From contig CAWAWR010000019.1 in assembly GCA_963785745.1 (NCBI GenBank), positions 20,662 through 84,661 of the forward strand: a stretch of DNA of 64,000 nucleotides. Reading direction: 5' to 3'. The position numbers were made by a program, and so were the translations under genes. This DNA comes from an uncultured Alphaproteobacteria bacterium. Lineage in GTDB: Bacteria; Pseudomonadota; Alphaproteobacteria; Rhizobiales; Xanthobacteraceae. Below the pieces are notes generated by a model, which saw only the letters and a program-made list of their open reading frames with translations, had not been told where the DNA came from and did not search any database. This document shows, piece by piece, positions 1-16,677 of this stretch (position 1 is its first letter; each line of letters opens with the position of its first letter).

Positions 1-491
1 AAATCTACAAGGCGCGTCCGGACGTGCACGCGATCCTGCACAGCCATTCGCCGACCGTCATTCCGTTCGGCGCCTCGAATGTGCCGCTGCGTCCGATCGT
101 CAACACCGCCGGATTCCTGTCGCCCGACGTTCCGGTGTTCGAGATGCGCCGGGTCGCGGGGTCTCGCAGCCTGCTGGTCACCGATGCCAAGCTCGGCAAG
201 GCGCTCGCCGACACATTGGGCAGCCGCTCGGTCGCGCTGATGCGCGGCCACGGCAATGTCGTGGTGGGACCGAACGTCCGGCGCATGGTGTCGCGCGCGA
301 TCTACACCGAGGTGAACGCGCGCCTGCAAATGCAGGCGCTCACGCTCGGCAGCCCGATCATCTATCTCGACGAGACCGAGGCGCGGGCCGGCGAAGAGAA
401 CCGGGACAAATCCGAGCGCGGCCACAGCACCGACCGCACCTGGCAGATGTGGGTCGAGGAAGCGATGGGACCGGGCAGCGGCGGCCGCTGA
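1..491 (+). CDS. class II aldolase/adducin family protein (5'-truncated by window edge)
   Basis: Frame 3 ORF running off the 5' edge; translation HAILHSHSP...LMRGHGNVVVG matches class II aldolase metal-binding motifs; stop at 489-491. Confidence 0.6.
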   Translation, partial: IYKARPDVHAILHSHSPTVIPFGASNVPLRPIVNTAGFLSPDVPVFEMRRVAGSRSLLVTDAKLGKALADTLGSRSVALMRGHGNVVVGPNVRRMVSRAIYTEVNARLQMQALTLGSPIIYLDETEARAGEENRDKSERGHSTDRTWQMWVEEAMGPGSGGR

Positions 492-574
492 TCCGGCGAT
501 GGCGAGCGCCGTTCGGATAGCCACATCCCGCCCAAAATAGAGGCAAAATCCACGCCGACGGATGCCCGCGGGCT

Positions 575-2084
575 GTGCAAAAGTCCAATTGGTTTGGCGC
601 GCGGCTTGCTACTACACTTCCAGATCGTTCCAGAGCGGCGGACCGCCGCCCGGGGGCAGTAACGGTGGCAGTTGTTTTCGATGAGATGAGAGGGACCGAC
701 GGGTCGGTTCGCCCGCCCTATGGCGAACTGTCGCGCTGGCTCACCGAGGTTCCGCCCGAGGTGCTCGATCACCGGCGGCGCGAGGCGGAACTGATCTTCC
801 AGCGGATCGGCATCACCTTCGCGGTCTATGGCGAGACCGACGCCCAGGAGCGCCTGATCCCCTTCGACGTGGTCCCGCGCATCCTTGCTGCGGCCGAATG
901 GGACTTCGTCAGCCGCGGCCTCGAACAGCGCGTGAAGGCGATCAACGCCTATATCGGCGACGTCTATGGCCGGCGCGAGATTCTCAAGGCGGGCGTGATC
1001 CCGGAGGATCTGGTGTTCCAGAATCCGGTGTTCCGGCCCGAGATGAACGGCCAGAAAGTCCCGCACGACATCTACGTCCATATCGCCGGCATCGACATCG
1101 TCCGCGTCGACGCCTCGACGTTCTATGTGCTCGAGGACAACGCCCGCACGCCCTCCGGCGTCTCCTACATGCTGGAGAACCGCGAGATCATGCTGCGGCT
1201 GTTTCCGGAACTGTTCTCCCGCCATCGCGTTGCACCGGTCGAGAACTATCCCGATGAATTGCTGGCGACGCTCAAGTCCGTGGCACCCGTGACCGCCTCG
1301 TCCGATCCGACGGTCGTGTTGCTCACGCCCGGCATCTACAATTCCGCCTATTACGAGCACTCGTTCCTGGCCGACAAGCTCGGCGTCGAGCTCGTCGAAG
1401 GCCGCGATCTGTTCGTGAAGGACGAGACCGTCTACATGCGCACGACCCAGGGGCCGCAGCGCGTGGACGTGATCTACCGCCGCATCGACGACGACTTCCT
1501 CGATCCGCTGGCCTTCCGTCCCGAATTCAGCGCTCGGCGTGCCGGGCGTCATGTCCGCCTACCAGGCCGGCAACGTCACGCTGGCGAACGCCGTCGGCAC
1601 CGGCATCGCCGACGACAAGGCGGTCTACAGCTACATGCCCGCGATCGTGAAGTTCTACCTCGGCGAAGAGCCGCTGTTGAACAACGTGCCGACCTGGCGC
1701 TGCCGTGAGGAGGACCACCTCTCTTATGTGCTCGACCACCTCGAGGAATTGGTCGTCAAGGAAGTCCACGGCTCCGGCGGCTACGGCATGCTGATCGGAC
1801 CGAAGGCGGACAAGGCCCAGATCGAGGCGTTCCGGGCCAAGCTGAAATCGTCGCCGAAAAACTTCATCGCACAGCCCACGCTGGCCCTGTCGACGGTCCC
1901 GACCTGCGTGGAAGAAGGAATCGCGCCGCGGCATGTCGATCTGCGGCCGTTCGTGCTGGTCGGCCGCGACCGCGTCCGGATCGTTCCGGGCGGGCTCACT
2001 CGCGTCGCTCTGCAAAAAGGATCGCTGGTCGTCAATTCGAGTCAGGGCGGCGGCACCAAGGATACCTGGGTGTTGGACACTTAA
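575..2084 (+). CDS. circularly permuted type 2 ATP-grasp protein, first gene of an Anbu-type operon; apparent +1 frameshift near 1520-1540 (possible pseudogene or sequencing error); start codon uncertain (GTG 575 or GTG ~665)
   Basis: ORF 575..1708 (..[14 protein letters not shown].., [17 protein letters not shown]) and ORF 1539..2084 ([20 protein letters not shown]...) are the N- and C-terminal parts of one family; the two frames overlap at 1539-1708. Confidence 0.7.
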
Positions 2085-2086
2085 AG

Positions 2087-3028
2087 ATGCTTTCCCGTAC
2101 CGCCGACAATCTGTACTGGCTTTCACGCTACGTCGAGCGCGCGGAATACCTCGCGCGCATTCTGGAAGTGACGCAGCGGCTGACCACGCTTCCGCTCTCC
2201 TATGTCGGCACCGGCAACGAATGGGAATCCGCCGTCGCCACCGCCGGCTGCGCCGGCGCGTTCTCCGCGCATTATTCGGAAGCCAACGAGGAGACGGTCA
2301 CCGAATTCCTGTGCTTCTCGACCGCCAACCCGTCGTCGATCCGAAGTTGCTTCGAGCTCGCGCGCACCAATGCCCGCGCGGTGCGCACCGCGCTGACCAT
2401 GGAAATGTGGGACGCGATCAACGGCACCTGGCTCCAGCTCAAGCGCTTCGGCAACGGACCGACCTCGCGCGAGGAATTCATGCGCTTCCTGCGCTGGGTA
2501 CAGGAAGCCTCGCTGCGCTTCGACGGCCGGGCCTACCGCACCATGCTGCGCAACGACGCCTATTGGTTTTCGCGGCTGGGGCTCTACCAAGAGCGTGCCG
2601 ACAACACCGCGCGCATCCTCGACGTCAAGTTTCACCTGCTGCTGCCGACCAACGAACGCGTCGGCGGTCCGCTCGACTATTTTCAATGGTCGGCGATCCT
2701 GCGTTCGGTGTCGGCACTGACGGCGTATCACTGGGTCTACAAGGAAAGCGTCAAGCCGTGGCTGATTGCCGACCTGCTCATCCTCAAGGATGAAATGCCG
2801 CGCTCGCTCGCAAGCTGCTACGGCAACCTGGTCCAGAACCTCGACTACATCGCGCAGGCCTATGGCCGTCAGGGCCCCGCGCAGCGCCAAGCCCGGGCGG
2901 TGCGCACGCGGATTCAGAACAGCCGCATGGAAGAGATATTCCAGCAGGGCCTGCACGAATTCATCGGCGAGTTTATCTCCTCCAACAACCGTCTGGGCGC
3001 GGCGATCACCGAGCAGTATTTGCAGTGA
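2087..3028 (+). CDS. alpha-E domain protein (Anbu operon gene 2)
   Basis: 313-aa ORF MLSRTADNLYWLSRYVERAEY... typical alpha-E N-terminus; starts 3 nt after the ATP-grasp stop. Confidence 0.8.
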   Translation: MLSRTADNLYWLSRYVERAEYLARILEVTQRLTTLPLSYVGTGNEWESAVATAGCAGAFSAHYSEANEETVTEFLCFSTANPSSIRSCFELARTNARAVRTALTMEMWDAINGTWLQLKRFGNGPTSREEFMRFLRWVQEASLRFDGRAYRTMLRNDAYWFSRLGLYQERADNTARILDVKFHLLLPTNERVGGPLDYFQWSAILRSVSALTAYHWVYKESVKPWLIADLLILKDEMPRSLASCYGNLVQNLDYIAQAYGRQGPAQRQARAVRTRIQNSRMEEIFQQGLHEFIGEFISSNNRLGAAITEQYLQ

Positions 3029-3072
3029 TCCCACAGTAGACATTTCCAATGCCATCGTGATGATGGCTGTCC

Positions 3073-3900
3073 ATGCGCATCCGCGTCGTCCACCGGACCA
3101 CCTACCACTACGACACGCCGGCCAGCGGCGTGATCCAGATGCTGCGCCTGACGCCGCGCAATCATGACGGCCAATTCGTCGTCAACTGGCACATCGACGT
3201 GTCGACGGACTGCCGGCTGGATCAGCACGAAGACGCGTTCGGAAATATCTGCCATGCCTTCACCGCGGAAGGGCCGTTCAGCGATCTCGTCGTGTCGGTG
3301 GAAGGCGAGGTTGAGACCCGCAACACCAACGGCGTTGTGACCGGCGCGATCGAACGGTTCCCCCCTTCGCTCTTCCTGCGTGAGACGCCGTTGACGAGGC
3401 CTGACGAAGCCATTGCCGGCTTTGCTTCCGCGGCCCGCGCGGAGGCCGGGGATGACAACCTCAAGGTCTTGCACGCTGTGCTGGCGGGCCTGCACCAGGA
3501 CATGACTTTCGATCCCGATCCGACGCATAGCGCGACGACGGCAGCCGAAGCCTTCGCCCTCAAGCGCGGCGTGTGCCAGGACCTCACCCACGTCTTCATT
3601 GCCGCGGCGCGCAGCGTCGGGATACCGGCCCGCTACATCAGCGGACACTTTCATCGCAACGACGGCGTCGTCGACCAGGAGGCCGGCCACGCCTGGGCCG
3701 AGGCTTTTGTGCCGGGTCTGGGCTGGGTCGCGTTCGATGCCGCGAATGGCATTTGCGCCACGGAAGCCCATGTCCGGATCGCGGCCGGGCTCGACTATCT
3801 GAGTGCGGCGCCAGTCCGCGGCACCCGCTACGGAGGCTCCGGCGAGACGCTGTCGGTCAATGTCCGTGTCGACCAGACACAACGGCAATCACAAAGCTGA
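3073..3900 (+). CDS. transglutaminase-like family protein (Anbu operon gene 3)
   Basis: 275-aa ORF MRIRVVHRTTYHYDTPASGVIQMLRLTPRNHDGQ.. (Bact_transglu_N-like) followed by a GVCQDLTH..HAWAE..D core Cys-protease region. Confidence 0.8.
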   Translation: MRIRVVHRTTYHYDTPASGVIQMLRLTPRNHDGQFVVNWHIDVSTDCRLDQHEDAFGNICHAFTAEGPFSDLVVSVEGEVETRNTNGVVTGAIERFPPSLFLRETPLTRPDEAIAGFASAARAEAGDDNLKVLHAVLAGLHQDMTFDPDPTHSATTAAEAFALKRGVCQDLTHVFIAAARSVGIPARYISGHFHRNDGVVDQEAGHAWAEAFVPGLGWVAFDAANGICATEAHVRIAAGLDYLSAAPVRGTRYGGSGETLSVNVRVDQTQRQSQS

Positions 3901-3904
3901 TCCA

Positions 3905-3994
3905 GTGTCCCGAAAACCGAAGTATGGTTGACTTCTGAGCCGCCACACTGGTGTCCCGAATTCGAAGTTCGCCTAACTTCTGAACCGCCACACT
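3905..3994. repeat. two tandem copies of a ~45-bp direct repeat in the transglutaminase-Anbu intergenic region
   Basis: gtgtcccgaaaaccgaagtatggttgacttctgagccgccacact / ggtgtcccgaattcgaagttcgcctaacttctgaaccgccacact. Confidence 0.6.
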
Positions 3995-4056
3995 AGCGTT
4001 GCCCCCCTGCCTACGGGGTCGCTATAAGTGCTTTGCATCCGGGGAGCGGCCGACAC

Positions 4057-4803
4057 ATGACCTATTGCTGCGGAATTCTGGTTCGCGACGGCCTGGTGAT
4101 GTTTGCCGACACCCGCACCAATGCCGGTGTCGACAACATCTCCACGTTCCGCAAGCTTCACGTCTTCAGCAAGCCGGGCGAGCGCATCATCGGCGTCGCG
4201 ACGGCCGGCAACCTTTCGATCAGCCAGTCGGTGGTGAGCATGCTGCGGGAAGGCTGGGAGAATCCCGACACCGGCGAGACCGAAACGCTGATGACCGCGC
4301 CGACCTTGTTTCAGGCGGCGCAACGCGTCGGGCGCACCATCCGCAAGATCCACGAGGAGGAAGCGACGGTGCTGGAAGCCAACGATGTCAGGTTCGATGT
4401 CTCGTTCCTGCTCGGGGGACAGGTCAAGGGCGAGCGCCCTCGCCTGTTCCTGCTCTACTCCGCCGGCAACTTCATCGAGTGCACCCAGGACACTCCGTAT
4501 TTGCAGATCGGCGAGCACAAATACGGCAAGCCGGTGCTCGACCGCGCCATCACCTATGACCTCGATCTTTATGACGCGCTGAAGATCGGGCTGGTGTCGG
4601 TCAACTCCACCATGCGTTCGAACCTGAGCGTCGGATTGCCGCTCGACATCCTGATCGCGCGCCGCGACGCCTACGAAGCCGAGGTCAACTATCGCATCGA
4701 GCCCGGCGAACCCTATTTCCACGATCTGCGCGAGCGCTGGTCGGCGGCATTGCGCAACGCCCACCTCAGCATTCCGCGCCCGCCCTACAAGAGCGCGCGC
4801 TGA
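4057..4803 (+). CDS. proteasome-type peptidase Anbu (ancestral beta-subunit homologue)
   Basis: ORF 4033..4803; likely start MTYCCGILVRDGLVMFADTRTNAG at 4057, a Thr-containing N-terminus typical of Anbu/HslV-like proteins. Confidence 0.75.
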   Translation: MTYCCGILVRDGLVMFADTRTNAGVDNISTFRKLHVFSKPGERIIGVATAGNLSISQSVVSMLREGWENPDTGETETLMTAPTLFQAAQRVGRTIRKIHEEEATVLEANDVRFDVSFLLGGQVKGERPRLFLLYSAGNFIECTQDTPYLQIGEHKYGKPVLDRAITYDLDLYDALKIGLVSVNSTMRSNLSVGLPLDILIARRDAYEAEVNYRIEPGEPYFHDLRERWSAALRNAHLSIPRPPYKSAR

Positions 4804-5015
4804 GCTTACGAACTCATAAGCGCTGAGCTTAGGACTCATAAAAGGCGATAATCTATTTTGACCATTCGGCGGCGCTTTTTAACCGGCGATTAACGCCACC
4901 GTCTGAAATGCCAAGCCATTGTGCCGATAACCCGCGGAAAAGCGGCAAGGCAAGCCTATCGCAATTATTGCGACGGTATCTTTCAAGGCTAAAAAACCTC
5001 AAGGGGGGCAATCAG

Positions 5016-7307
5016 TTGGCCTTGGCTGTGCCGCATACGAGCGAAGGACGAGCGACCGCCGGCCGCTATTACGCGCGCCGCGGCGTCGTGATTCCGATCG
5101 GCATCATCGTCGCCGTCGCGATCGTCTGCGTCGTTGTCGCCGTGCTCGGCTCGGCGCAGCGTGCCGACGACGTCGCGATCGCGACCGAGCGTCAACTGTT
5201 CACGCGCGCGCTGCACAATCACGGCGAACGCATGCTGCGCGAGGTTGACGCCGTCGCCAATTCCGAATCCGCCTACCGCAAGATCCGCCTCAGCTTCGAT
5301 GCCGAGTGGGTTCAGGTCTACGTCGGACAGCGGCTGCAATCCTATTTTGATCATCATTTCGTCTTCGTGACGGATCCGTCCGACCGGTTCCAGTACGCCA
5401 CGCTCGGCAATCGCCGCGTCGATCCAAACTGGTTCAATTCGGTCCGCAACGATCTCAATGCCGCCCTCGATCAATTGCGAGGGCGCAGCAACGGCGCCTC
5501 CGGAAGCGCTCTCGCCGGCAACTCACCCGCCGGCGCCGACCATTTGCCGGCACATCAGCAAAGCCAGCGCATCACGCGGTTGCAGACGTTCCTCGGCCGT
5601 CCTGCCATCGTTGTCGCGGTCGCGATCGCAAGCCCCGAAGATCTCGCGAAGAATTCGGCGGACAAGGCCCCGATCGTGATGAGCGTGAAGCTCGTCGACA
5701 ACGACGTGCTGGCGGAAATCGCGTCGCACCTGCAGTTGCGCAACCTTCGCCAGATCGGCGTCGAGCCCATTACGCCGGGCGACTACGTCTTCAAGCTGAC
5801 CGATCCGCAAGCGCAGCAGGTCGCGACCTTCGCGTGGACGCCCAAGCGGCCCGGCGCGGAGATCGTCAGCAGCGTCATTCCCTTCATTGCCGTCGCGGTC
5901 GCGGGTTTCGCGCTCCTGGCCGCGCTTGTGCTCGGCCACATGCGCCGCACCGCCGCGACCATTGCATCCGGTGAATCGAGACTGCGCCACCTTGCGCTGC
6001 ATGATCCGCTGTGCGGCCTGCCCAACCGTATCTTCTTCGGCGAGCGCCTCGAAGCCGTGATCGCGGACGTCCAGAGGGGCAACGCGCCGGCGGCGGTGCT
6101 CTATATCGACCTCGACCATTTCAAAGACGTCAACGACACGCTTGGCCATCCCATCGGCGACGAATTGATCCGCGCGGTGACGCAGCGGCTCACCCATACG
6201 GTCCGCGAAAAAGACCTTGTCGCCCGCATCGGCGGCGACGAATTCGCCGTCATCACCGCCGTGGGCTCCGACCACTCGACGCTGCTGAACATCGCCAACC
6301 GCCTGATCGCGGCGATCTGCGCGCCCTACACGATCAGCAACCAGACCATCGTGATCGGAGCTAGCATCGGCATCGCCGTGATCAACGAGAAGATCACCGG
6401 CGCGGCCGACATCATGCGTCATGCCGACATGGCGCTCTACCGCGCCAAGAACGAAGGCCGCAACCGCGCCTGCATCTATGACACGGCGATGGACACCGAT
6501 CTCCTCAACCGCAAGCTGGTTGAGAACGACCTGCGGCAGGCCATCGAGCGCAACGAGCTGCGGGTGGCCTATCAGCCGATCGTCAACAACAGCGGAGAGA
6601 CGGTGGTCGGCGTCGAGGCGCTGTGCCGCTGGACGCATCCGGTTCGCGGCGAGATTTCTCCGGCGGAGTTTATTCCGATCGCGGAAAACTCAGGCCTGAT
6701 CATCGCGCTGGGCGAATGGGTGCTGCGCCGCGCCTGCATCGACGGCAAGGCTTGGAAGGACGTGATGGTCTCCGTCAACGTTTCGCCGCTGCAATTCCGC
6801 CGCGCCGACTTCGTCGACGTGGTCGAACGCATCCTCGCCGAAACCGGCTTCGACCCGACGCGGCTCGAGCTCGAGGTCACCGAGAGCACGCTGCTCGGCA
6901 ACGTCGACACCGCGGAACTCGCGATGTTCCGCCTCAAGGCGCTCGGCGTGCGGCTCGCCCTCGACGACTTCGGCACCGGCTATTCGAGCCTGCTCTATCT
7001 GCGCCGCTTCCCGTTCGACAAGCTCAAGATCGACCGCAGCTTCGTCCATTCGATCGAGCGCGCCGCCGACGCCGCCGCGATCGTCCACGCCGTGGTCAGC
7101 CTCGGCCGCGGCCTCGGCATGAAGGTCACGGCGGAAGGCGTCGAGACCGCCGAGCAGCACCTGTTCCTGCGCGCAGCGGGCATCCATTCCATGCAGGGCT
7201 TCCGCTTCGGACGCCCCGGCCCGGCGGCGGACATCAGCACGCGACTGGCCGAACCGGGCTCGTTCCGGATCAAGGACGATGCGTCCGACCTCGCGATGAC
7301 GGCCTGA
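5016..7307 (+). CDS. membrane sensor diguanylate cyclase/phosphodiesterase (TM, ~250-aa periplasmic domain, TM, GGDEF, EAL)
   Basis: ORF 4908..7307; SD aaggggggcaatcag then in-frame TTG at 5016; two hydrophobic segments; RIGGDEFAVI and VVGVEALCRW motifs. Confidence 0.7.
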   Translation: MALAVPHTSEGRATAGRYYARRGVVIPIGIIVAVAIVCVVVAVLGSAQRADDVAIATERQLFTRALHNHGERMLREVDAVANSESAYRKIRLSFDAEWVQVYVGQRLQSYFDHHFVFVTDPSDRFQYATLGNRRVDPNWFNSVRNDLNAALDQLRGRSNGASGSALAGNSPAGADHLPAHQQSQRITRLQTFLGRPAIVVAVAIASPEDLAKNSADKAPIVMSVKLVDNDVLAEIASHLQLRNLRQIGVEPITPGDYVFKLTDPQAQQVATFAWTPKRPGAEIVSSVIPFIAVAVAGFALLAALVLGHMRRTAATIASGESRLRHLALHDPLCGLPNRIFFGERLEAVIADVQRGNAPAAVLYIDLDHFKDVNDTLGHPIGDELIRAVTQRLTHTVREKDLVARIGGDEFAVITAVGSDHSTLLNIANRLIAAICAPYTISNQTIVIGASIGIAVINEKITGAADIMRHADMALYRAKNEGRNRACIYDTAMDTDLLNRKLVENDLRQAIERNELRVAYQPIVNNSGETVVGVEALCRWTHPVRGEISPAEFIPIAENSGLIIALGEWVLRRACIDGKAWKDVMVSVNVSPLQFRRADFVDVVERILAETGFDPTRLELEVTESTLLGNVDTAELAMFRLKALGVRLALDDFGTGYSSLLYLRRFPFDKLKIDRSFVHSIERAADAAAIVHAVVSLGRGLGMKVTAEGVETAEQHLFLRAAGIHSMQGFRFGRPGPAADISTRLAEPGSFRIKDDASDLAMTA

Positions 7308-7320
7308 CGGACGACCGCCT

Positions 7321-8298
7321 TCAGTCCAGCTTCAAGCCGATTGACCTGATCACCGGCGTCCAGTACGCGATTTCATCGGCCAGAAGCCTCTCGGCCTTCT
7401 TGGGCGTGGATTCGAAATCAGGCGTGAACCCCGACGCGTTGAACATCCGCTGCAGATCCTTGTCAGCCACCGCCTTACGCGTGGCTTGCGTGAGCTGCTC
7501 AAGGATCGCTTTCGGCGTGCCGCTGGGCGCGTAGAGGCCGATGAAATTCTCCGAAGTCAGTCCGGGAAATCCCGCCTCTCCAACCGTCGGAATGTCGGAC
7601 GCGACCCGCTTCGCGCCGGTCGACGCGAGGATGCGCAGCTTTCCAACCTTGTGCAGCTCGAACGCACCCGCGCTCGCGCTCTGCACCACCATCGGGATGT
7701 GACCGCTGATCAGGTCGGTCATGGCCGGCCCCGCGCCGCGATAGGGGACGTGCGGGATATCGGTTCCGGTCAGCGACTTGAACCGCTCGCCGACCAGATG
7801 ATTCATCGAGCCCGTGCCCGACGATCCGTATGACAGTTTCCCGGGATTGGCTTTGGCGTAGTCGGCAAGGTCCTTCAACGTCCGGACCGGCAGCGTCGGA
7901 TGCACGCCGATCAGGGTCGCGTTGTAGCCGAGGATCGCGATCGGCTCGAAATCCTTGACGGGATGGTACGGCAAGCGGGTCGACGCGATCGGGTGGACGA
8001 CCAGCATCGGGGTGCCGCCGAACAGGATCGTATAGCCGTCCGGCTGCGCGCGGGCGACCGCTGCGGCGCCGAGCGAACCGCCGCCGCCGCCCATGTTCTC
8101 GGCGACGACCGTTCCCAGATGCGGCTTCACGCTCTCGACAAACGGACGGGCGGTGGAGTCGTAGAGCCCGCCGGGCGCAAACGGAACAATGAGCCGGATT
8201 GGCCGATCGGGGTATTTCGACTGGGCGAGCGCAGTTTGTGCCAGCGCCGAAGCGGCGAATGCGACCGGAACCAACGCAAGCAGATCACGTCGTTTCAT
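7321..8298 (-). CDS. Bug/TctC-family tripartite tricarboxylate transporter substrate-binding protein
   Basis: Likely start MKRRDLLALVPVAFAASALA (signal peptide); Bug-family core ..GGGGSLGAAAVARAQPDGYT.. Confidence 0.8.
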   Translation of the reverse strand: MKRRDLLALVPVAFAASALAQTALAQSKYPDRPIRLIVPFAPGGLYDSTARPFVESVKPHLGTVVAENMGGGGGSLGAAAVARAQPDGYTILFGGTPMLVVHPIASTRLPYHPVKDFEPIAILGYNATLIGVHPTLPVRTLKDLADYAKANPGKLSYGSSGTGSMNHLVGERFKSLTGTDIPHVPYRGAGPAMTDLISGHIPMVVQSASAGAFELHKVGKLRILASTGAKRVASDIPTVGEAGFPGLTSENFIGLYAPSGTPKAILEQLTQATRKAVADKDLQRMFNASGFTPDFESTPKKAERLLADEIAYWTPVIRSIGLKLD

Positions 8299-8405
8299 GA
8301 CGCGTCCCTCCCTGTGGTGTCGCTTTTCTATTTTTCTGGATATTAGCGCATTGCCTGGGTCGGCGCAGTGCTGATAATGCGCTCCGACCAGCAAGGATTT
8401 CCGAC

Positions 8406-9167
8406 ATGGCACAACAAAAAATCGCGGTCGTTACCGGCGCGGGCACCGGCATCGGCAGGGCCGTTGCGCTTGCGCTGATGAAGGACGGCTTTGCCGTCGC
8501 GCTGGCCGGTCGCCGGAAGGACAAGCTCGACGAGACCGCGACCGAGGGCGTCAAGACCAACGGGCAGAGCCTGGTGGTCCCGACCGACGTCAGCGACCCG
8601 GCGTCGGTGAAGGCGCTGTTCGCCAAGACCAAGGAGACGTTCGGCCGCTGCGACGTGCTGTTCAACAATGCCGGCATCGGAGCGCCGGCGACGCCGATCG
8701 AGGACCTTCCCTACGAAACCTGGAAGAAGGTCGTCGACATCAATCTCACCGGCATGTTCCTGTGCACCCAAGAAGCGATCCGGCTGATGAAGGCGCAGAA
8801 CCCGCGCGGCGGCCGCATCATCAACAACGGCTCGATCTCCGCCCACACGCCGCGGCCGGGCGCCGCCGCCTATACCGCGACCAAGCATGCCGTCACCGGC
8901 CTGACCAAGCAGACCGCGCTCGACTGCCGCGGCAAGGACATCGTCTGCGGGCAGATCGACATCGGCAACGCCGCGACGCCGCTGACCGAACGCATGGTGC
9001 AGGGCCAGGGCGTGCTGCAACCGGACGGCCGGATGGCGGTCGAGGCGCGCATGGACGCCGGCGACGTCGGCCGCGCCGTGGTCTATATGGCGGGCCTGCC
9101 GCTCGACACCAACGTGCTGTTCATGACGGTGATGGCGAACGCGATGCCGTTCGTCGGGCGGGGCTGA
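8406..9167 (+). CDS. SDR-family oxidoreductase
   Basis: 253 aa; [10 protein letters not shown] Rossmann motif; NNAG; catalytic YTATKHA. Confidence 0.8.
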
Positions 9168-9193: not shown

Positions 9194-10540
9194 TTATTGT
9201 CGACCGGTTGGCGGCCAATTTGTATCCGCGGGTGGCGTCAATGTGAAGGGGGCCAATTTGGACGGCGGGTGGCATCGATACGAAGGGCGGCCAATTGAAC
9301 CGCGTGGCGGCCAATATGCATCGGCGGGCTTCGATACCAAAGGCGGCCTTGGAGGTGGCTCAGGCGGTGGCGCCTGGATTGTCAATGCAGGGTCGTAACG
9401 TCGTGTCTCCACCCATTGGTGCGCGTGCGTCCTCGAAACGCTTACGGTTCGGAAGGGAATCCCGCTTGCTTTCTCCACGAACATGGATCGGTGGCTATAG
9501 AACGTTCTGGCTGACTCACTGTCTCGGTAGAAGTCATATTCGTACCAATCGTGGTCGCGGCCATCCACCGAGACCCTACCCAGACATTTGACCTGCCCGA
9601 CATACTCAGACGGTGGAAACAAGCGTCCTGACGATCTTGTCTACGAAGTTCGGCTTTTCGGGAGTCTCTACCCAACTGTCCGGCATCGATCTGCTTTGCC
9701 CAAGCTCGCCCGTCCGCTGCAATGGTTTCGCCGAAACGCCCGCCAACGAACTGATGTGAACCGGTACTGAATCGCATCGGAGGGAACAAAGGTGCCTGTC
9801 AAGCAGCAAGGAATGGATTCAAACGATCCTTTGATCTCAAACTCAAAGGCCGCCATCCTGCCGCGTTGGACCGCGGTAAAAAACTCGGCCCGGCATGCGG
9901 GATCGCCTTTCTGCGCTTCTTGCGAGAGACGCCGCAGCGACTCCGACCACCGCTTTTCAAAGTCGACGGCAGGCGGATCGATGCGGATCGAGGGATCATG
10001 GCGATAAATTGCCATGGACGCCCGAACTTGCATCGCTCCGTCCGCGCGTCTCGAATTGAACCGGGAGTCCGGAATGCTCGTCGGTAAAAATCGTCTCGAC
10101 CCAAACCCGCTCGGCGATCTGCTTGGCGAATTCGTATTTGTTCATTGCGCGACCGTCGATGACGACGCGGCCCAGGCATGTCACTTGACCGGCTGAAAAT
10201 GGCACCCCGGGTGCGGGCACTCTGTCTTGGTGAGTCCAAATCGTTGAATATGGACCTCGCCACCCGGCGCGATCCTTCTCCCACTTGCGATCGCCAATCC
10301 ACACCGTCTCGCGCTCTGTGCCGGCAGCGGCGTCGCAGTTGCGCTCGCGCTGGGCGATGCCAGGCACAATCTCTCCACAGATTTTCATCCGGACGTCTTT
10401 GCTCCAGCGCGTAGTCTCGAAATGGAATGGCCCCGAATTCCATGCACGCGTCCACGAGCAGCGTGAGCTTCGTCTTCGCAGTGGGAGGCTGCGGGCACGC
10501 CCCAAACACAGGCGATCAGCGCAATGACGAGCCGGCGCAA
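9194..10540 (-). pseudogene. secreted Cys/Trp-rich repeat protein of unknown family, disrupted copy (composite of ORFs 9996..10640, 9668..10033 and 9194..9622)
   Basis: Signal peptide (M)RRLVIALIACVWGVPAASHCEDEA is in a different frame from the downstream SGPFHFETTRW..CGEI..CLGRVVIDGR domain; second shift at ..FETRGRSDASSGVHGNLSP* / AIYRHDPSIRIDPPAVD; two in-frame TAG stops (9668-9670, ~9641-9643) before the C-terminal PSEYVGQVKCLGRVSVDGRD module; homologous to 10713..11982. Confidence 0.6.
9205..9350. repeat. degenerate ~35-bp tandem repeat (3-4 units, ggcggccaat-type) encoding the Trp/Pro-rich tail of the disrupted paralogue
   Basis: tggcggccaatttgtatccgcgggtggcg... ggggccaatttggacggcgggtggcatcgatacgaag ggcggccaattgaaccgcgtggcggccaatatgcatc; translates on the minus strand to WPPRGSIGRP / WPPTGRQ. 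Confidence 0.55.
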
Positions 10541-10712
10541 TTTCGTCTCCCCGATCCTTGGCCGGCATGGCGCTTCTGGTCAGAGCCCTTGTGCCAGGCG
10601 CGTCTAAGTTGAATTTCGACTGCGGCAAGATCGAGACCAACGTGCCGTTGCCGACCGCGTTGGCGAACGCAATGCCGTTCGTCGGACGATTAAAGACCGT
10701 CCGACGGCCGGG

Positions 10713-11982
10713 CTATCTCGGGGAAACCTCCTGAGCAAACCGCTCCGGAAGCATCGCCCGGCGATGTTCTTCATCTGTCATCGAGCGTAACGGTGGGGCC
10801 GGGCTTTGGCCGGCACTCGATTCGGTCGGAGGAGCCTCGACCGTGAGCCCCGGCTCATACCAACGCATTTCGACCCACGACCGGGCGCCGCCTCTCGACA
10901 AGCCTACGGTTTGCGTGGGAAGCCCGGTCGCGTCATCGACCAGAACGCGCCGCGTATCGTAGAACTTCAGCGCCGACTCCCAATTCCGATACAGATCATA
11001 GTTGTAGACCCGATAGTCGCGGCCCGAGATCGTAACTTTGCCCAGACACCGCACATGGCCCACATGTTCCGGATTCGGCATCAATTCGCCTATGACCCAA
11101 TCCACGCTGGGGCGTTGGTCAAGCGCTTCCAACCACTGCGGATCGACCCATTTCCATATCTGATCGCCAACGGCAATGAACTCCATTGCGTATTGGAATG
11201 AAAGCATCCTGTTATAGATGGACCTGGGCGCGACAAAGACACCGCGCATTCCGTGCAGGTGGGTGTGAAAGAAACGCCTCAAGTCATAGTGAAAGCTCGC
11301 CGTCCGTCCGCGCCGAAGGGCACTCATGACCTCCTGACGGCAGGCGGTGTCGGTGTCTTGCACGATATCCTCGAATTGCCGCACCGACCTTGCCCACCTC
11401 TTGTCGAGATCGACTGCGGGCGGCTTGATCGCGATCAAGGGATCATGGCGATAGACCGTCACGGTCGCGACCGAATCTCCGCTCCTGGTCTCAAAGCGAA
11501 ACGGAAGGCGCGTGCCGGCATCGACGAATACAGTCTCGGCGACGTCAACCCGATCCCCGGTTTGTGCAATGAATTCGTACTGGTACCGACTCGCGGCCTT
11601 CCATCTTGACGCGGCCGTGACAGCGGACATGGTTGAACGCTCGGACCAGCGACCAAGTCGGCAGCTTGCTGCCATGAGACCAGCCGCTTGGATGCGAGCC
11701 TCGCCAACCAAAGCCGTCGTTCACCCAGCTCTGGCTCTGACTTTGGATTCGGATGTGTTCGAGGCGATTGCCGCTTGCCGGTTCGCAACTGCGTTCGAAC
11801 TCGGCCTTGAGCGGATCGATTTCTCCGCATGTCCGCACGCCGGGGCTCGCTCTCGTCTCAAAATGGAAGGGGCCCGACATCCACACGCTCTTGCGCGCAG
11901 CATACGCCTCGTCTTCGCAATCGGCGGCGGCAGGCAATATCCATAGGAAGGCAAGAATGCAGATGCACCGGTTCAAAATCAT
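10713..11982 (-). pseudogene. secreted Cys/Trp-rich repeat protein of unknown family; signal-peptide ORF 11545..11982 and body ORF 10713..11711 joined by an apparent frameshift near 11570-11590
   Basis: Start MILNRCICILAFLWILPAAADCEDEAYAARKSVWMSGPFHFETR..CGEI..VRCHGRVKMEGRESVP, then in the other frame YQYEFIAQ..LPFRFETR..VYRHDPLIAIKPPAVDLDKRW..HVGHVRCLGKVTISGRDYRVYNYDLYR; in 9996..10640 the same junction is continuous (CLGRVVIDGRAMNKYEFAKQ). Confidence 0.6.
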
Positions 11983-12044
11983 GGCTCCAACCCTCGTCGC
12001 ATGAGTTCGGAATCTCGCCGGAGTATTGCTGGCCAGTGTACTCC

Positions 12045-13257: not shown

Positions 13258-13923
13258 GTGGAAACGCCGATCAGAGTAAGCGCATTCCGTTGGGTACCGC
13301 CGTTCGCGCAGGGCCTGGCGCGCGATTTTCGCGTGCGCTGGGCGCTGGAAGAGGCCGGCCTTCCCTATGAGGAGCGGCTGATCGGGCCGGAGGATCAATC
13401 CACCGAGAGCTACCGCGCGCTGCAGCCGTTCGGGCAAATCCCGGCGATCGAGGACGACGGGCTTCCCCTGTTCGAATCCGGCGCCATCGTCCTGCACATC
13501 GCGGAGCGTTCGGAAGCGCTGATGCCGTCCGATCCTGCCGGACGGGCGCGCGTGATGTGCTGGGCGTTCGCCGCGCTCAACTCGATCGAGCCGCGCGTGA
13601 ATGCGCTTTCGGAGATCGACCTTTTCCATTCCGACGCGGAATGGGCGAAGCTACGCCGCCCCGCGGTCGAGCAGGCGGCGAAGGCCCGGCTGACATTGCT
13701 CGCGGACCGCTTCAAGGGACGCGACTATCTCGAGGACCGGTTCACCGCCGCCGACATCCTGATGACGACGGTGTTGCGCGTCCTGCGCCACACCGATCTG
13801 GTCGCGCAGATCCCGCCGCTCGAGGCCTACCGGCTGCGCTGCGAAGCGCGTCCGGCATTCAAAAAGGCGATGGCCGACCACCTGGCGCCGTCTGCGAAGC
13901 ATGCGCCGGCGCCCGTAAACTAG
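13258..13923 (+). CDS. glutathione S-transferase family protein
   Basis: 221 aa; N-terminal thioredoxin-like GST fold (..ESGAIVLHIAE..) and C-terminal helical domain. Confidence 0.7.
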   Translation: METPIRVSAFRWVPPFAQGLARDFRVRWALEEAGLPYEERLIGPEDQSTESYRALQPFGQIPAIEDDGLPLFESGAIVLHIAERSEALMPSDPAGRARVMCWAFAALNSIEPRVNALSEIDLFHSDAEWAKLRRPAVEQAAKARLTLLADRFKGRDYLEDRFTAADILMTTVLRVLRHTDLVAQIPPLEAYRLRCEARPAFKKAMADHLAPSAKHAPAPVN

Positions 13924-13937
13924 GTGAGGACCGGCCC

Positions 13938-14360
13938 ATGACGACGCGCTTCCTGCTCGCCGCCCTCGCCTACATCGTGCCGACCTTCCCGCTCGGCTAT
14001 CTCTGGCATCTGGTCTTCTTCAAGAACTACTACGCGTCGCTCCTGGTCTATCGCCCGGATATGGCCTTCTCCTTGGGCGTGACGTCGATGGCGATCCAGA
14101 GCGTCATCTGGGCCTACCTCTACAACCGCCTGTTCTCCGGCGAGCCGGTGCTGCGCGGCGCCGTCAAATTCGCGGCGCTGGCCTTCCCGCTCGCCTGGAG
14201 CTTTTTGGTGCTGCCGATCGGCGCCAAGCACCTGATGGCCGACGTGCAGGGCTTCGTTCTGATCGAGACAGCGTTTGTCGCCGTTCAATACCTGATCGTC
14301 AGCCCGCTGATCGCGCTGGCGTTCTCGTATGGAAGAGCGCCACAAGCCGCAGCCGCTTAG
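13938..14360 (+). CDS. small integral membrane protein (4 predicted TM), unknown function
   Basis: MTTRFLLAALAYIVPTFPLGYLWHLVFF...; SD gtgagga 8 nt upstream of ATG 13938. Confidence 0.6.
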   Translation: MTTRFLLAALAYIVPTFPLGYLWHLVFFKNYYASLLVYRPDMAFSLGVTSMAIQSVIWAYLYNRLFSGEPVLRGAVKFAALAFPLAWSFLVLPIGAKHLMADVQGFVLIETAFVAVQYLIVSPLIALAFSYGRAPQAAAA

Positions 14361-14430
14361 CGTACATTCCGGCGGTATTTTCCTCCCGAGCCGCTACAAT
14401 CCCCCGCGAATCCTTTGGGTTTGCGGGGGC

Positions 14431-15681
14431 ATGCTGCAACTTCAATCGGCCTTGGGCGTCGTCGGCTTGCTCGCCATCGCCTGGCTTGTCAGTGAGCGGC
14501 GGCGTGCCGTGCGCTGGAAGCAGGTCGGTCTTTCGCTGGCGCTCACCATCGTTGTCGCCGTCATCCTGCTCAAGATTCCGCAGGTCGTCGCGGCCTTCGC
14601 CTATGTGAACCAGGCGGTGGGCGCGATCGCCGCGGCGACCCGCGCCGGCACGACGTTCGTGTTCGGCTATCTCGGCGGCGGCACCCTGCCCTACGACCTG
14701 AAGACGCCGGGCGCCGAGTTCGTGCTCGCCATGCAGGCGCTGCCGGTGCTGCTGGTGATGAGCGTGCTGACGACGCTGCTGTTCTACTGGCGCGTGCTGC
14801 CGCCCTTGGTGCGCGGCTTCTCCTGGGCGCTGGAGCGCACCATCGGCGTCGGCGGCGCGGTCGGGCTTGCGACCGCGACCAACATCTTCGTTGGCCACGT
14901 CGAGGCGCCGCTATTCATCCGGCCTTACCTTGCGCGGCTGACGCGTACCGAGCTGTTCATCGTGATGACCGGCGGCATGGCCGGCATCGCCGGCACCGTG
15001 CTGGTGCTCTACGCCACCATGCTCGTTCCGATCATCCCGGATGCCGCCGCGCATCTCGTGATCGCCTCGGTGCTGGGCGCGCCGGCGGCGATCCTGATCA
15101 GCCTGATCATGGTGCCGGAGACCACCGAGAGGCAGACCGGCGGCGATCTCATCGAGCCCGAGCCGGTGGCGTCGAGCACGATGGACGCGATCGTGAAGGG
15201 CACCGTCGCCGGGCTCGAGCTGCTGATGACCATCGTCGCCATGCTGATCGTGCTGGTCGCGCTGGTCTACCTCGCCAATGCCATCCTCGGCTTGCTGCCC
15301 GACGTCGCCGGTGCGCCGCTCTCGCTGCAACGCATGCTCGGCTGGATCATGGCGCCGGTCACCTGGCTGATGGGCATCCCCTGGGATCAGGCGCAGACCG
15401 CCGGCAGCCTGATGGGCATCAAGACGATCCTCAACGAGCTGATCGCCTATGTGGAACTGTCGAAGCTCGCCCCCGACGCGCTCGACGCGCGCTCGCGGCT
15501 GATCATGCTCTACGCGATGTGCGGCTTCGCCAATTTCGGCTCGCTCGGCATCATGATCGGCGGCATGGCCACGATGGTGCCGGAGCGCCGCGACGACATC
15601 GTGTCGCTCGGGCTCCGGTCGATCGTGTCGGGCACGCTCGCGACCTGCCTGATCGGCGCGATCGTCGGCGTGCTGAATTGA
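14431..15681 (+). CDS. NupC/NupG-family (CNT) nucleoside transporter
   Basis: ORF 14329..15681; likely start MLQLQSALGVVGLLAIAWLV after gcggggg; multi-TM; CNT-type C-terminal domain. Confidence 0.75.
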   Translation: MLQLQSALGVVGLLAIAWLVSERRRAVRWKQVGLSLALTIVVAVILLKIPQVVAAFAYVNQAVGAIAAATRAGTTFVFGYLGGGTLPYDLKTPGAEFVLAMQALPVLLVMSVLTTLLFYWRVLPPLVRGFSWALERTIGVGGAVGLATATNIFVGHVEAPLFIRPYLARLTRTELFIVMTGGMAGIAGTVLVLYATMLVPIIPDAAAHLVIASVLGAPAAILISLIMVPETTERQTGGDLIEPEPVASSTMDAIVKGTVAGLELLMTIVAMLIVLVALVYLANAILGLLPDVAGAPLSLQRMLGWIMAPVTWLMGIPWDQAQTAGSLMGIKTILNELIAYVELSKLAPDALDARSRLIMLYAMCGFANFGSLGIMIGGMATMVPERRDDIVSLGLRSIVSGTLATCLIGAIVGVLN

Positions 15682-15684
15682 AAA

Positions 15685-15713
15685 GACCCTGCCGCTCGCG
15701 CGGCAGGGTCTTG
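15685..15713. terminator. 10-bp GC-rich hairpin between convergent genes (possible bidirectional terminator)
   Basis: gaccctgccg ctcgcg cggcagggtc, then ttgtcgc (weak U-tract). Confidence 0.45.
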
Positions 15714-15738
15714 TCGCAAACTCACATAAACCTTCGGC

Positions 15739-16677
15739 CTATCCCGGCGTCGGCGCGTAGCGGCCGGTCGCCTGCGGCGCGTATCCGCCCTTGCCGCCCT
15801 TGGTCTCCCATTCGAGCCGCGTGTCGCGGGGCCAGGTGCGCTTGAGGTCGTCCTTCACGTCGACGCGCAAGCGGCCAAGCCCGTCGATTTCGAGTTCGAC
15901 CTTGTCGCCGTTCTGGAACGCATGCAGGCCGCGATGGTTGGTGCCGGTTGCGAGCACGTCGCCCGGCTCCAGGCCGTGGATCGAGCTGACGAACTCGATG
16001 CAGCGCGGGATTTTGTGCGCCATGTCGTCGGTGTTGTAGTTCTGCTTCAGCGTCCCGTTGTTCCAGAGCCGGACCTGCAGCTTGTGCGGATCCTTGATCT
16101 CGTCGGCGGTGACGATGTAGGGCCCGATCGGCGCGAAGGTGTCGCGCGATTTCATCTGATAGAAGGTGTTGCCCGGCGGCTTCAGTCCGCGGGCGGAGCC
16201 GTCGATGAAGTTGGTGTAGCCGAACACGTAGCTCATCGCGTCGGCTTCTTTGATATTGCTGCCACGCTTGCCGATGATCACCGCAAGCTCGGCCTCGCCT
16301 TCAAAGTGGGTCGCTGGCACATCGGGCAGCACCATCGTACCGGCAGTTGGCAGCACGCAATTCGGTGACTTGAGGAACGCGTTGATCGGCGCCGGCTCCT
16401 TGCGGGTGCCGTCCTCCATGTAGTTGACCGCCATGCAGTCGATATTGATCGGGCGCGGCAGCGGCGAACGGATCGTCACCTTATCGAGCGGAATCGAGCG
16501 GCCGCGGCCGGCCGCCTGCTCGATCCTATTGCGGTAATCGCCCCAGCGTTCGATGACACCATTGATCAGGTCGTGCGGCCCGAGCTGCGGCACGTCCTTG
16601 ACCGCATCCATGACGTCGACGACGACGTCATCCTTGAGCACACCAAGCCGGAAATCATCGAAAAACAGGATCTTCAC
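15739..16677 (-). CDS. fumarylacetoacetate hydrolase (FAH) family protein
   Basis: 312 aa; FAH-fold motifs ..GTNHRGLHAFQNGDKVELEIDGLG.. Confidence 0.75.
   Translation of the reverse strand: MKILFFDDFRLGVLKDDVVVDVMDAVKDVPQLGPHDLINGVIERWGDYRNRIEQAAGRGRSIPLDKVTIRSPLPRPINIDCMAVNYMEDGTRKEPAPINAFLKSPNCVLPTAGTMVLPDVPATHFEGEAELAVIIGKRGSNIKEADAMSYVFGYTNFIDGSARGLKPPGNTFYQMKSRDTFAPIGPYIVTADEIKDPHKLQVRLWNNGTLKQNYNTDDMAHKIPRCIEFVSSIHGLEPGDVLATGTNHRGLHAFQNGDKVELEIDGLGRLRVDVKDDLKRTWPRDTRLEWETKGGKGGYAPQATGRYAPTPG

Follow-up and report, generated by a model that had tools for sequence, protein, structure and literature searches.

Descriptions of the Anbu operon go back to 2008, reportedly by Valas and Bourne in that year and by Iyer et al. 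in 2009, and structural work on it has appeared since 2017. Its namesake product, the ancestral beta subunit (Anbu), is a homologue of the proteasome beta subunit and of HslV. In the published operons, the Anbu gene comes last, after the genes for an ATP-grasp protein, an Alpha-E protein, and a transglutaminase (PMC6376114, PMC5666114, PMC3235984). The structurally studied examples are from Yersinia bercovieri, Hyphomicrobium sp., and Pseudomonas aeruginosa, and Thr1, Asp17, and Lys32 are the candidate catalytic residues of Anbu (PMC6376114). Here we analyze a locus of this kind on a stretch of 64,000 nucleotides (nt) of contig CAWAWR010000019.1 (assembly GCA_963785745.1), referred to below as the window, from an uncultured soil bacterium of the Xanthobacteraceae in the Pseudolabrys/Pseudorhodoplanes neighborhood. 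The four genes run in the published order from 665 to 4803 on the forward strand, and the locus is a canonical and probably intact Anbu operon. The locus itself carries little weight, being a copy of a well-described and very common system with no distinguishing architecture. What it offers is a regulatory model, set out below, and a worked example of how, in alphaproteobacterial metagenomes assembled from long reads, GANTC sites, the sites of the CcrM methyltransferase, can give rise to insertions and to G-to-A calls.

The four genes of the operon

A sequence-only reading of this DNA had placed the four adjacent genes of an Anbu operon on the forward strand at 575 to 4803. The open reading frames (ORFs) and the Pfam matches agree with that placement, and searches with hidden Markov models and against the PDB bear out the family assigned to each of the four genes. 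Its start coordinate lies about 90 nt too far upstream: gene calls in conspecific contigs put the true start of the first gene at a GTG codon at 665. Positions 1 to 9000 of the window have a G+C content of about 63-66%, because of which long spurious ORFs appear on both strands, and the run of forward-strand genes was picked out by the G+C content of third codon positions.

The first gene (665..2084, + strand) encodes a circularly permuted type-2 ATP-grasp, a COG2308-type amide ligase that is split between two frames in the window and amounts to 472 residues after removal of one extra A. Its 5′ half lies in a frame-2 ORF (575..1708) that matches the CP_ATPgrasp_1/2 profile over positions 1-216 (E value 3e-102), and its 3′ half lies in a frame-3 ORF (1539..2084) that matches positions 221-374 (E value 1e-63). 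When the frame is corrected, the protein aligns with the structural-genomics PDB entry 3n6x over residues 5-470 with an E value of 2e-202. The Alpha-E gene (COG2307; 2087..3028, + strand) starts 2 nt past the ATP-grasp stop codon, so that both genes are tightly coupled. Its 313-residue product matches PF04168 over profile positions 1-294 of 294 (E value 5e-94) and has ER dipeptides at residues 17, 169, and 190; a sequence search against the PDB returned no solved structural relative. The third gene (3073..3900, + strand) encodes a transglutaminase-like cysteine hydrolase of 275 residues (COG1305) with matches above the cut-offs to both PF08379 (Bact_transglu_N) and PF01841 (Transglut_core). 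Cys168, His206, and Asp222 of this protein align with their equivalents in PDB entry 3isr, within the GVCxD, H, and FDA motifs. The successive intergenic gaps of the operon measure 2, 44, and 156 nt.

The fourth gene (4057..4803, + strand) encodes Anbu, a protein of 248 residues. The ORF extends from 4033 to 4803, with the true start at the ATG at 4057; translation from this codon gives MTYCCG, and hence Thr1 with no propeptide. Searches with phmmer against the Anbu chains in the PDB gave nearly full-length matches to 5loy (3e-86), 5nyj (4e-72), 5nyf (2e-71), 5nyw (6e-69), and 5lox (3e-65). Thr1, Asp17, and Lys32 are all present (MTYCCG...FADTRTN...FRKLHV; T2, D18, and K33 when the initiating Met is counted), and 71 of 73 relatives have the same three residues. 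Against the Pfam Proteasome profile, Anbu scores a weak 30.8 bits, and the score against TIGR03634, the NCBIfam model of the archaeal beta subunit, is 32.6 bits against a cut-off of 224, which falls short of what is set for a proteasome beta subunit. No AAA+ protein was found among the precomputed Pfam labels for about 10 kb on each side in the conspecific contigs. A proteasome score below cut-off and the lack of an AAA+ neighbor are both as expected for Anbu. Of the four operon proteins, three match no named NCBIfam family.

Relatives of the ATP-grasp were collected in a single scan of species-representative genomes, which gave 581 confirmed loci. The best 80 of these, with 82-97% amino acid identity over the full length, were used for comparison. 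They belong to metagenome-assembled genomes (MAGs) of uncultured Alphaproteobacteria, Hyphomicrobiales, or Xanthobacteraceae, with Pseudolabrys and Pseudorhodoplanes bins among them. Sequence was sufficient at 72 of the related loci for synteny counts, and at 61 for the gene that follows Anbu; Anbu residues were compared in 73 relatives. The order of the four genes, which is that of the published operon, is retained in 71 of the 72 Xanthobacteraceae loci. With 581 related loci in one scan, this copy is not especially useful as an intact example of the module, as the sequence-only reading had suggested it might be. Every defining feature of an Anbu operon that could be checked is present with the exception of an uninterrupted first frame in the window, and this absence probably has a technical cause.

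The interrupted ATP-grasp frame

The first gene had been described as frameshifted, and this is true of the sequence as given, which contains one extra A; the cause is most likely nonbiological. The window reads CCCGAATTC at 1520-1528, with GAATTC at 1523-1528, and alignment with relatives and conspecifics shows that GATTC has become GAATTC through an additional A at 1524 (or, equivalently, 1525) on the + strand. All 80 relatives have CCNGAYTC at this point, one base shorter than the window and in frame. A look-up of exact proteins with Alpha-E returned three ENA metagenome contigs that encode an identical Alpha-E protein. Their DNA is 99.6-99.8% identical to window positions 1..7029, and they are therefore conspecific strains (L081, L082, and L083). 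The same look-up with Anbu, with two other genes, and with the truncated ATP-grasp fragment yielded no further conspecific contigs. None of the three contigs has the extra A, and on each of them the ATP-grasp is called as an intact 472-residue protein. Deletion of one A from the window gives a 472-residue ORF that differs at a single residue from each of the conspecific proteins and contains no more stops or indels. At the site of the frameshift, L082 and L083 have a GANTC motif, and L081 reads AATTC, which is a G-to-A change in the same motif. A frame plot of third-position G+C over the 64 kb, together with an inspection of every GAANTC/GANTTC site, gave no clear case of another frameshift by a method that is blind near gene ends, and the remaining flagged frame changes are ordinary gene junctions.

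The motif at the frameshift offers a way to account for it. GANTC, for example GATTC, is the motif on which the adenine methyltransferase CcrM of Alphaproteobacteria acts, and its under-representation is usual for Alphaproteobacteria that bear CcrM. The window contains 108 GANTC sites where a first-order Markov model predicts 332 ± 16, a three-fold under-representation, and GAANTC/GANTTC is slightly over-represented (157 vs 123 ± 12). A four-way alignment of 9.2 kb contains nine differences private to the window, and three of them fall on GANTC sites, which make up 0.93% of the alignment columns (binomial P = 6e-5). These three are the extra A at 1524, a further extra A at 4811, and a G-to-A change at 4603. 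The insertion at 4811 (+ strand) is intergenic and converts the GACTC of the conspecifics to GAACTC within a tandem duplication. The substitution at 4603 converts GACTC to AACTC, and the codon at 4603..4605 (+ strand) becomes AAC, which encodes Asn182 of Anbu (Thr1 numbering) in place of the Asp found in conspecifics. The solved Anbu chains have Asp at this position, as do 69 of 73 relatives, in which it is always encoded as GAY followed by TC and hence as a GANTC site. Asn, encoded within AAYTC, is also found in L001, L005, and L045, all of which are MFD MAGs with contigs named in the style 'contig_N', and this distribution suggests a systematic miscall that recurs in public MAGs. A polarized comparison over about 16 kb revealed only two private 1-nt indels in the window, both of the form GANTC to GAANTC and both within the 9.2-kb alignment; the remaining 6.8 kb, compared three ways with two other contigs, contained no private 1-nt indel of the window. 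Sister assemblies of the same ENA series are also prone to indels: one contig has fragmented UbiD and TctC genes, and another has four private insertions in 7 kb. Nanopore G-to-A and A-to-G errors have been reported to concentrate at bacterial methylation motifs, and some of them persist as calls that look like single-nucleotide polymorphisms (bioRxiv 10.64898/2026.01.14.699587).

On this evidence we consider it highly probable that the frameshift, the Asp182Asn substitution, and the insertion at 4811 are long-read consensus or basecalling errors at GANTC sites carrying N6-methyladenine. The biological counterpart of this reading is that the ATP-grasp gene has newly become a pseudogene in this strain, with Asp182Asn as a second lesion in an operon that is starting to decay. 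The insertion is indeed present in the sequence as given, the substituted Asp of Anbu is nearly invariant, and the operon is dispensable without stress in other bacteria (PMC5666114). Yet apart from this base the gene matches intact conspecific copies exactly or almost exactly and has no other stop or indel, and three strains at 99.6-99.8% identity are intact. Both lesions and a third, neutral intergenic indel also sit exactly on GANTC sites at the P value given above, a placement for which neutral mutation has no known reason, and the same G-to-A change in Anbu has turned up independently in the three MFD MAGs. Genuine decay is therefore improbable in our view. A programmed one-base ribosomal shift that would yield the full-length ligase as a form of translational control would explain why both halves of the gene are intact and in adjacent frames. 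The context CCC GAA TTC AGC has neither a slippery heptamer nor a rare-codon or stop context, the extra base is present in none of the 80 relatives and none of the three conspecifics, and the region contains no Rfam element (the sole match in a scan of 1..5200 was snaR-A at the chance-level E value of 0.82). The lack of a slippery site and of conservation effectively excludes a programmed shift. With an artefact as the likely source of the extra A at 1524, the organism most likely makes the full-length 472-residue ligase.

Errors of this kind at GANTC sites make intact genes look like pseudogenes and conserved residues look substituted. Every Asp-Ser dipeptide encoded as GAY TCN is a GANTC site, at which long-read miscalls can arise in Alphaproteobacteria.

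Other small differences among these contigs were also recorded. The 23-nt tandem duplication GCGCTGAGCTTACGAACTCATAA (two copies, 4797..4841) extends across the Anbu stop codon just upstream of a GGDEF-EAL gene, and each copy contains a GANTC site. An error of the window at the start of a GST gene at 13259 was considered and rejected: the extra G is private to contig_71351 in a three-way comparison, and the window is probably right. The gene for a NupC-type nucleoside transporter encodes 450 residues in the window (14329..15991), 493 in L093 (10573..12054), and 396 in L094 (3978..5168), differences that are due to single-base indels. Only contig_71351 has the insertions at 14487, 15602, and 15852, and their GTCG/CGTC-like contexts may be a second error-prone motif.

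Predicted promoters and proposed function

Two conserved promoter-like elements bear on how the operon may be expressed. The 173-nt region upstream of the ATP-grasp contains TGGCGCGCGGCTTGCT (595..610, + strand), a match to the -24/-12 box of sigma-54 (RpoN) promoters with the form GG-N10-GC, 55 nt from the start codon. The box is near consensus (TGGCAC-N5-TTGCW) and correctly oriented, with GG and GC exactly 10 nt apart, and the 64-kb window, counting both strands, has no other match to TGGC-N7-TTGCW. A TGG[CT]-N7-T[TC]GC box is found 45-143 nt upstream of the ATP-grasp, amid spacers and flanks that have diverged, in 77 of 80 relatives. At the same loci, with the true sites discounted, the strict sigma-54 pattern has a background of about 0.1% in a 270-nt window. 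A candidate upstream activator site, the dyad GCCCAAAATAGAGGCA (530..545, + strand) of the form GCCYA-N6-TRGGC, is located some 65 nt upstream of the -24 element. In 45 of 76 relatives, a 16-nt motif of this form precedes the sigma-54 box by 54-97 nt (median 67); by comparison, it occurs in 9 of 1196 control pieces of 110 nt (0.75%). Its position suggests a site for an enhancer-binding protein, which we infer to be of the NtrC type. The dyad presumably resembles the enteric NtrC site, which we take to be TGCACC-N5-GGTGCA, and we treat this likeness as a lead only.

The second element is in the 156-nt spacer between the transglutaminase and Anbu genes. A predicted sigma-70-like internal promoter, TTGCCC-N18-TATAAG, occupies 3999..4028 (+ strand), with GCTATAAG at 4021-4028, and is followed by the Shine-Dalgarno sequence GGGGAG at 4041-4046, upstream of Anbu. 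A simple consensus scanner did not report this promoter because the last base of its -10 hexamer is G. Of 72 relatives, 50 have a [CG][CGT]TATA[AT]N box less than 100 nt from the start codon of Anbu, and 42 of these also have TTGC at the -35 distance. Each of the other three genes has this -10 box in 1 of 72 upstream regions, and 6% of coding controls contain it. The spacer between the transglutaminase and Anbu genes showed no terminator-like site.

The spacer also contains two tandem copies of a repeat of about 45 nt (3906..3996, + strand), with two exact matches to the core ACTTCTGARCCGCCACACT that occur nowhere else in the window. In the closest species (L001, about 9390..9510), related copies lie elsewhere in the corresponding spacer, past the promoter-like box and with their orientation reversed. 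The repeat is probably a small mobile element or one like repetitive extragenic palindromes, and would stand outside the Anbu system. A structured RNA or a terminator was considered for this repeat and rejected, with folding no better than that of shuffled sequences (z -1.4) and no terminator with a T tract.

These elements lead to a regulatory model for this lineage, new and entirely inferred, that agrees with reporter data from Pseudomonas putida and could help to locate the inducing conditions of the system. In P. putida, the promoter of PP_2688 (ATP-grasp) responds to nitrogen limitation and that of PP_2685 (Anbu) is constitutive, as judged by reporters, and both genes are expressed more strongly on nitrate than on ammonium (PMC8050072). 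A note added in proof likewise lists the Anbu operon among the genes most induced under nitrogen limitation (PMC3235984). The predicted sigma-54 and sigma-70-like boxes are consistent with the P. putida reporter data. We regard it as fairly probable that the sigma-54 promoter and its upstream dyad would drive the ATP-grasp, Alpha-E, and transglutaminase genes with read-through into Anbu, and that the sigma-70-like promoter would give Anbu a basal, constitutive level. The activator of the sigma-54 promoter would most plausibly be NtrC under nitrogen limitation. The single operon proposed by the sequence-only reading holds up as to strand and conserved gene order, and it is a simplification in that there are probably two promoters. 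A more specific version treats Anbu of the Xanthobacteraceae as part of a dual-input unit, in which a dedicated enhancer-binding protein at GCCYA-N6-TRGGC would fire the sigma-54 promoter and Anbu would be kept at a basal level by its own sigma-70 promoter; this is a possibility that we place a little short of an even chance. If it is true, the peptidase would be present at all times, ready for substrates that arise only in response to a specific signal. Identification of the regulator would then supply the inducing condition that is missing for this system.

Family knowledge permits a sketch of what such a unit might do. Under nitrogen limitation, a sigma-54 activator would turn on the ligase, Alpha-E, and the cysteine hydrolase. 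The ATP-grasp, with Alpha-E as its partner, would activate a carboxylate as an acyl-phosphate and form an amide or isopeptide bond on a peptide or protein, after which the Cys-His-Asp hydrolase and the constitutively present Anbu would cleave the amide bonds of the modified substrate. The net result would be a tag-and-process or turnover cycle that aids nitrogen recycling. The ATP-grasp of Y. bercovieri releases phosphate from ATP (PMC6376114). We put this cycle of ligation and subsequent processing forward tentatively.

Two other accounts of the module were weighed beside it. The ligase, Alpha-E, and transglutaminase might instead form a self-sufficient sigma-54 module, with Anbu as an adjacent housekeeping peptidase on its own transcript. 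The 156-nt spacer with its conserved sigma-70-like promoter, the constitutive Anbu promoter of P. putida (PMC8050072), the three-gene modules that lack Anbu on pSymB of Sinorhizobium meliloti and on plasmids of Deinococcus deserti and Acidithiobacillus caldus, and the failure to detect a physical complex of operon proteins (PMC6376114) would all fit such a separation. We nonetheless judge it unlikely, given that in 71 of 72 relatives Anbu comes after the transglutaminase gene and on its strand, that the arrangement is the same across proteobacterial classes and cyanobacteria (PMC3235984), that the spacer is just 19 nt in Limimaricola, that Anbu and the ATP-grasp of P. putida are induced together on nitrate (log2 4.4 and 4.0; PMC8050072), and that the spacer has no terminator-like site. 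The module might also belong to a small-molecule pathway, making or recycling a glutathionylspermidine-like compound or a gamma-glutamyl amide with the hydrolases as its amidases. The nearest solved ATP-grasp, 3n6x, was deposited as a 'putative glutathionylspermidine synthase', a depositor name that is a prediction with no assay behind it. Some N-terminal nucleophile (Ntn) hydrolases cleave nonpeptide amides, and Anbu is inactive on proteasome peptide substrates (both PMC6376114, the former in its discussion), yet large proteasome-like oligomers of the kind that Anbu forms (PMC5666114) would be unusual for a metabolite amidase. No conserved transporter or metabolite-pathway gene adjoins the module, the upstream aldolase being present in 2 of 80 relatives, and a small-molecule role strikes us as rather doubtful. 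The ligation and processing cycle, the small-molecule pathway, and the independence of Anbu are not fully exclusive of one another.

The combined explanation, in which an Anbu operon with an artefactual frameshift is regulated from two promoters and carries out a cycle of amide ligation and processing, is the one we favor and consider likely as a whole. Several points weigh against it. The artefact reading is statistical, and the preprint on methylation-associated errors (10.64898/2026.01.14.699587) covers substitutions and not insertions. Both promoters are predicted from motif matches in this lineage, and the sigma-54 box is present in one of four distant plasmid-borne copies (A. caldus only), so it is not universal. 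Against the biochemical cycle, Anbu showed no peptidase or amidase activity in vitro, no complex among the operon proteins was detected (PMC6376114), and co-expression left the form of Anbu unchanged (PMC5666114).

Neighboring genes and known systems

Downstream of Anbu is a gene for a cyclic-di-GMP signaling protein with CHASE4, GGDEF, and EAL domains recognized by Pfam (4908..7307, + strand; conspecific gene calls start at about 5015). A homologue lies directly downstream of Anbu in 57 of the 61 relatives with enough sequence, which could reflect inherited synteny or a functional link. On the other side, an upstream class II aldolase was considered as a member of the unit and rejected, as it is retained in 2 of 80 relatives. 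Farther along, the conspecifics are more than 99.5% identical to the window up to 9167 and then densely divergent with multibase indels, so that about 9248..12033 is strain variable; a stretch of about 1.2 kb (10843..12033) is absent from contig_71351. Genes for periplasmic binding proteins of the TctC/Bug family are unusually dense in this region. Four stand in tandem at about 16.8..23 kb with a fifth past an intervening gene for a LysR-type regulator, and others flank the Anbu locus, at 7321..8412 (- strand) and upstream of the window.

Several known systems can be set beside this locus. HslVU and the 20S proteasome have in common with Anbu the Ntn-hydrolase beta-subunit fold family and the catalytic residues. 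Unlike those systems, the locus has no AAA+ unfoldase partner nearby and no alpha subunit, and Anbu assemblies are open dodecameric 'lock-washers' and not closed rings (PMC5666114). Modules of three genes on S. meliloti pSymB (L087), D. deserti plasmid 1 (L090), and the A. caldus megaplasmid (L089) have the same order and ATP-grasps that are 52-63% identical, and they lack the Anbu gene that is present here; among the distant copies on plasmids and chromids, that of Limimaricola has the four-gene form. The D. deserti ATP-grasp is about 130 residues longer. In A. caldus, an 842-residue transglutaminase-family gene precedes the ATP-grasp, and the sigma-54 box is in the intergenic region between them.

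The nitrogen-limitation-induced operon PP_2688-PP_2685 of P. putida KT2440 has a regulatory layout that matches the one predicted here from sequence. P. putida belongs to the Gammaproteobacteria, a different class from that of this organism. The closest match is the Anbu operon of Proteobacteria and Cyanobacteria, which consists of the same four families in the same order (COG2308, COG2307, COG1305, and Anbu) and in which, as here, Anbu has no propeptide, Thr1, Asp17, and Lys32 are present, and no gene for an AAA+ ATPase is adjacent (PMC6376114, PMC5666114, PMC3235984). Nothing essential differs from that operon: what sets this locus apart is its uncultured Xanthobacteraceae lineage, a 156-nt spacer that bears repeats, and one extra base that is likely due to sequencing. 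The locus is another copy of the known Anbu operon, with no architectural novelty.

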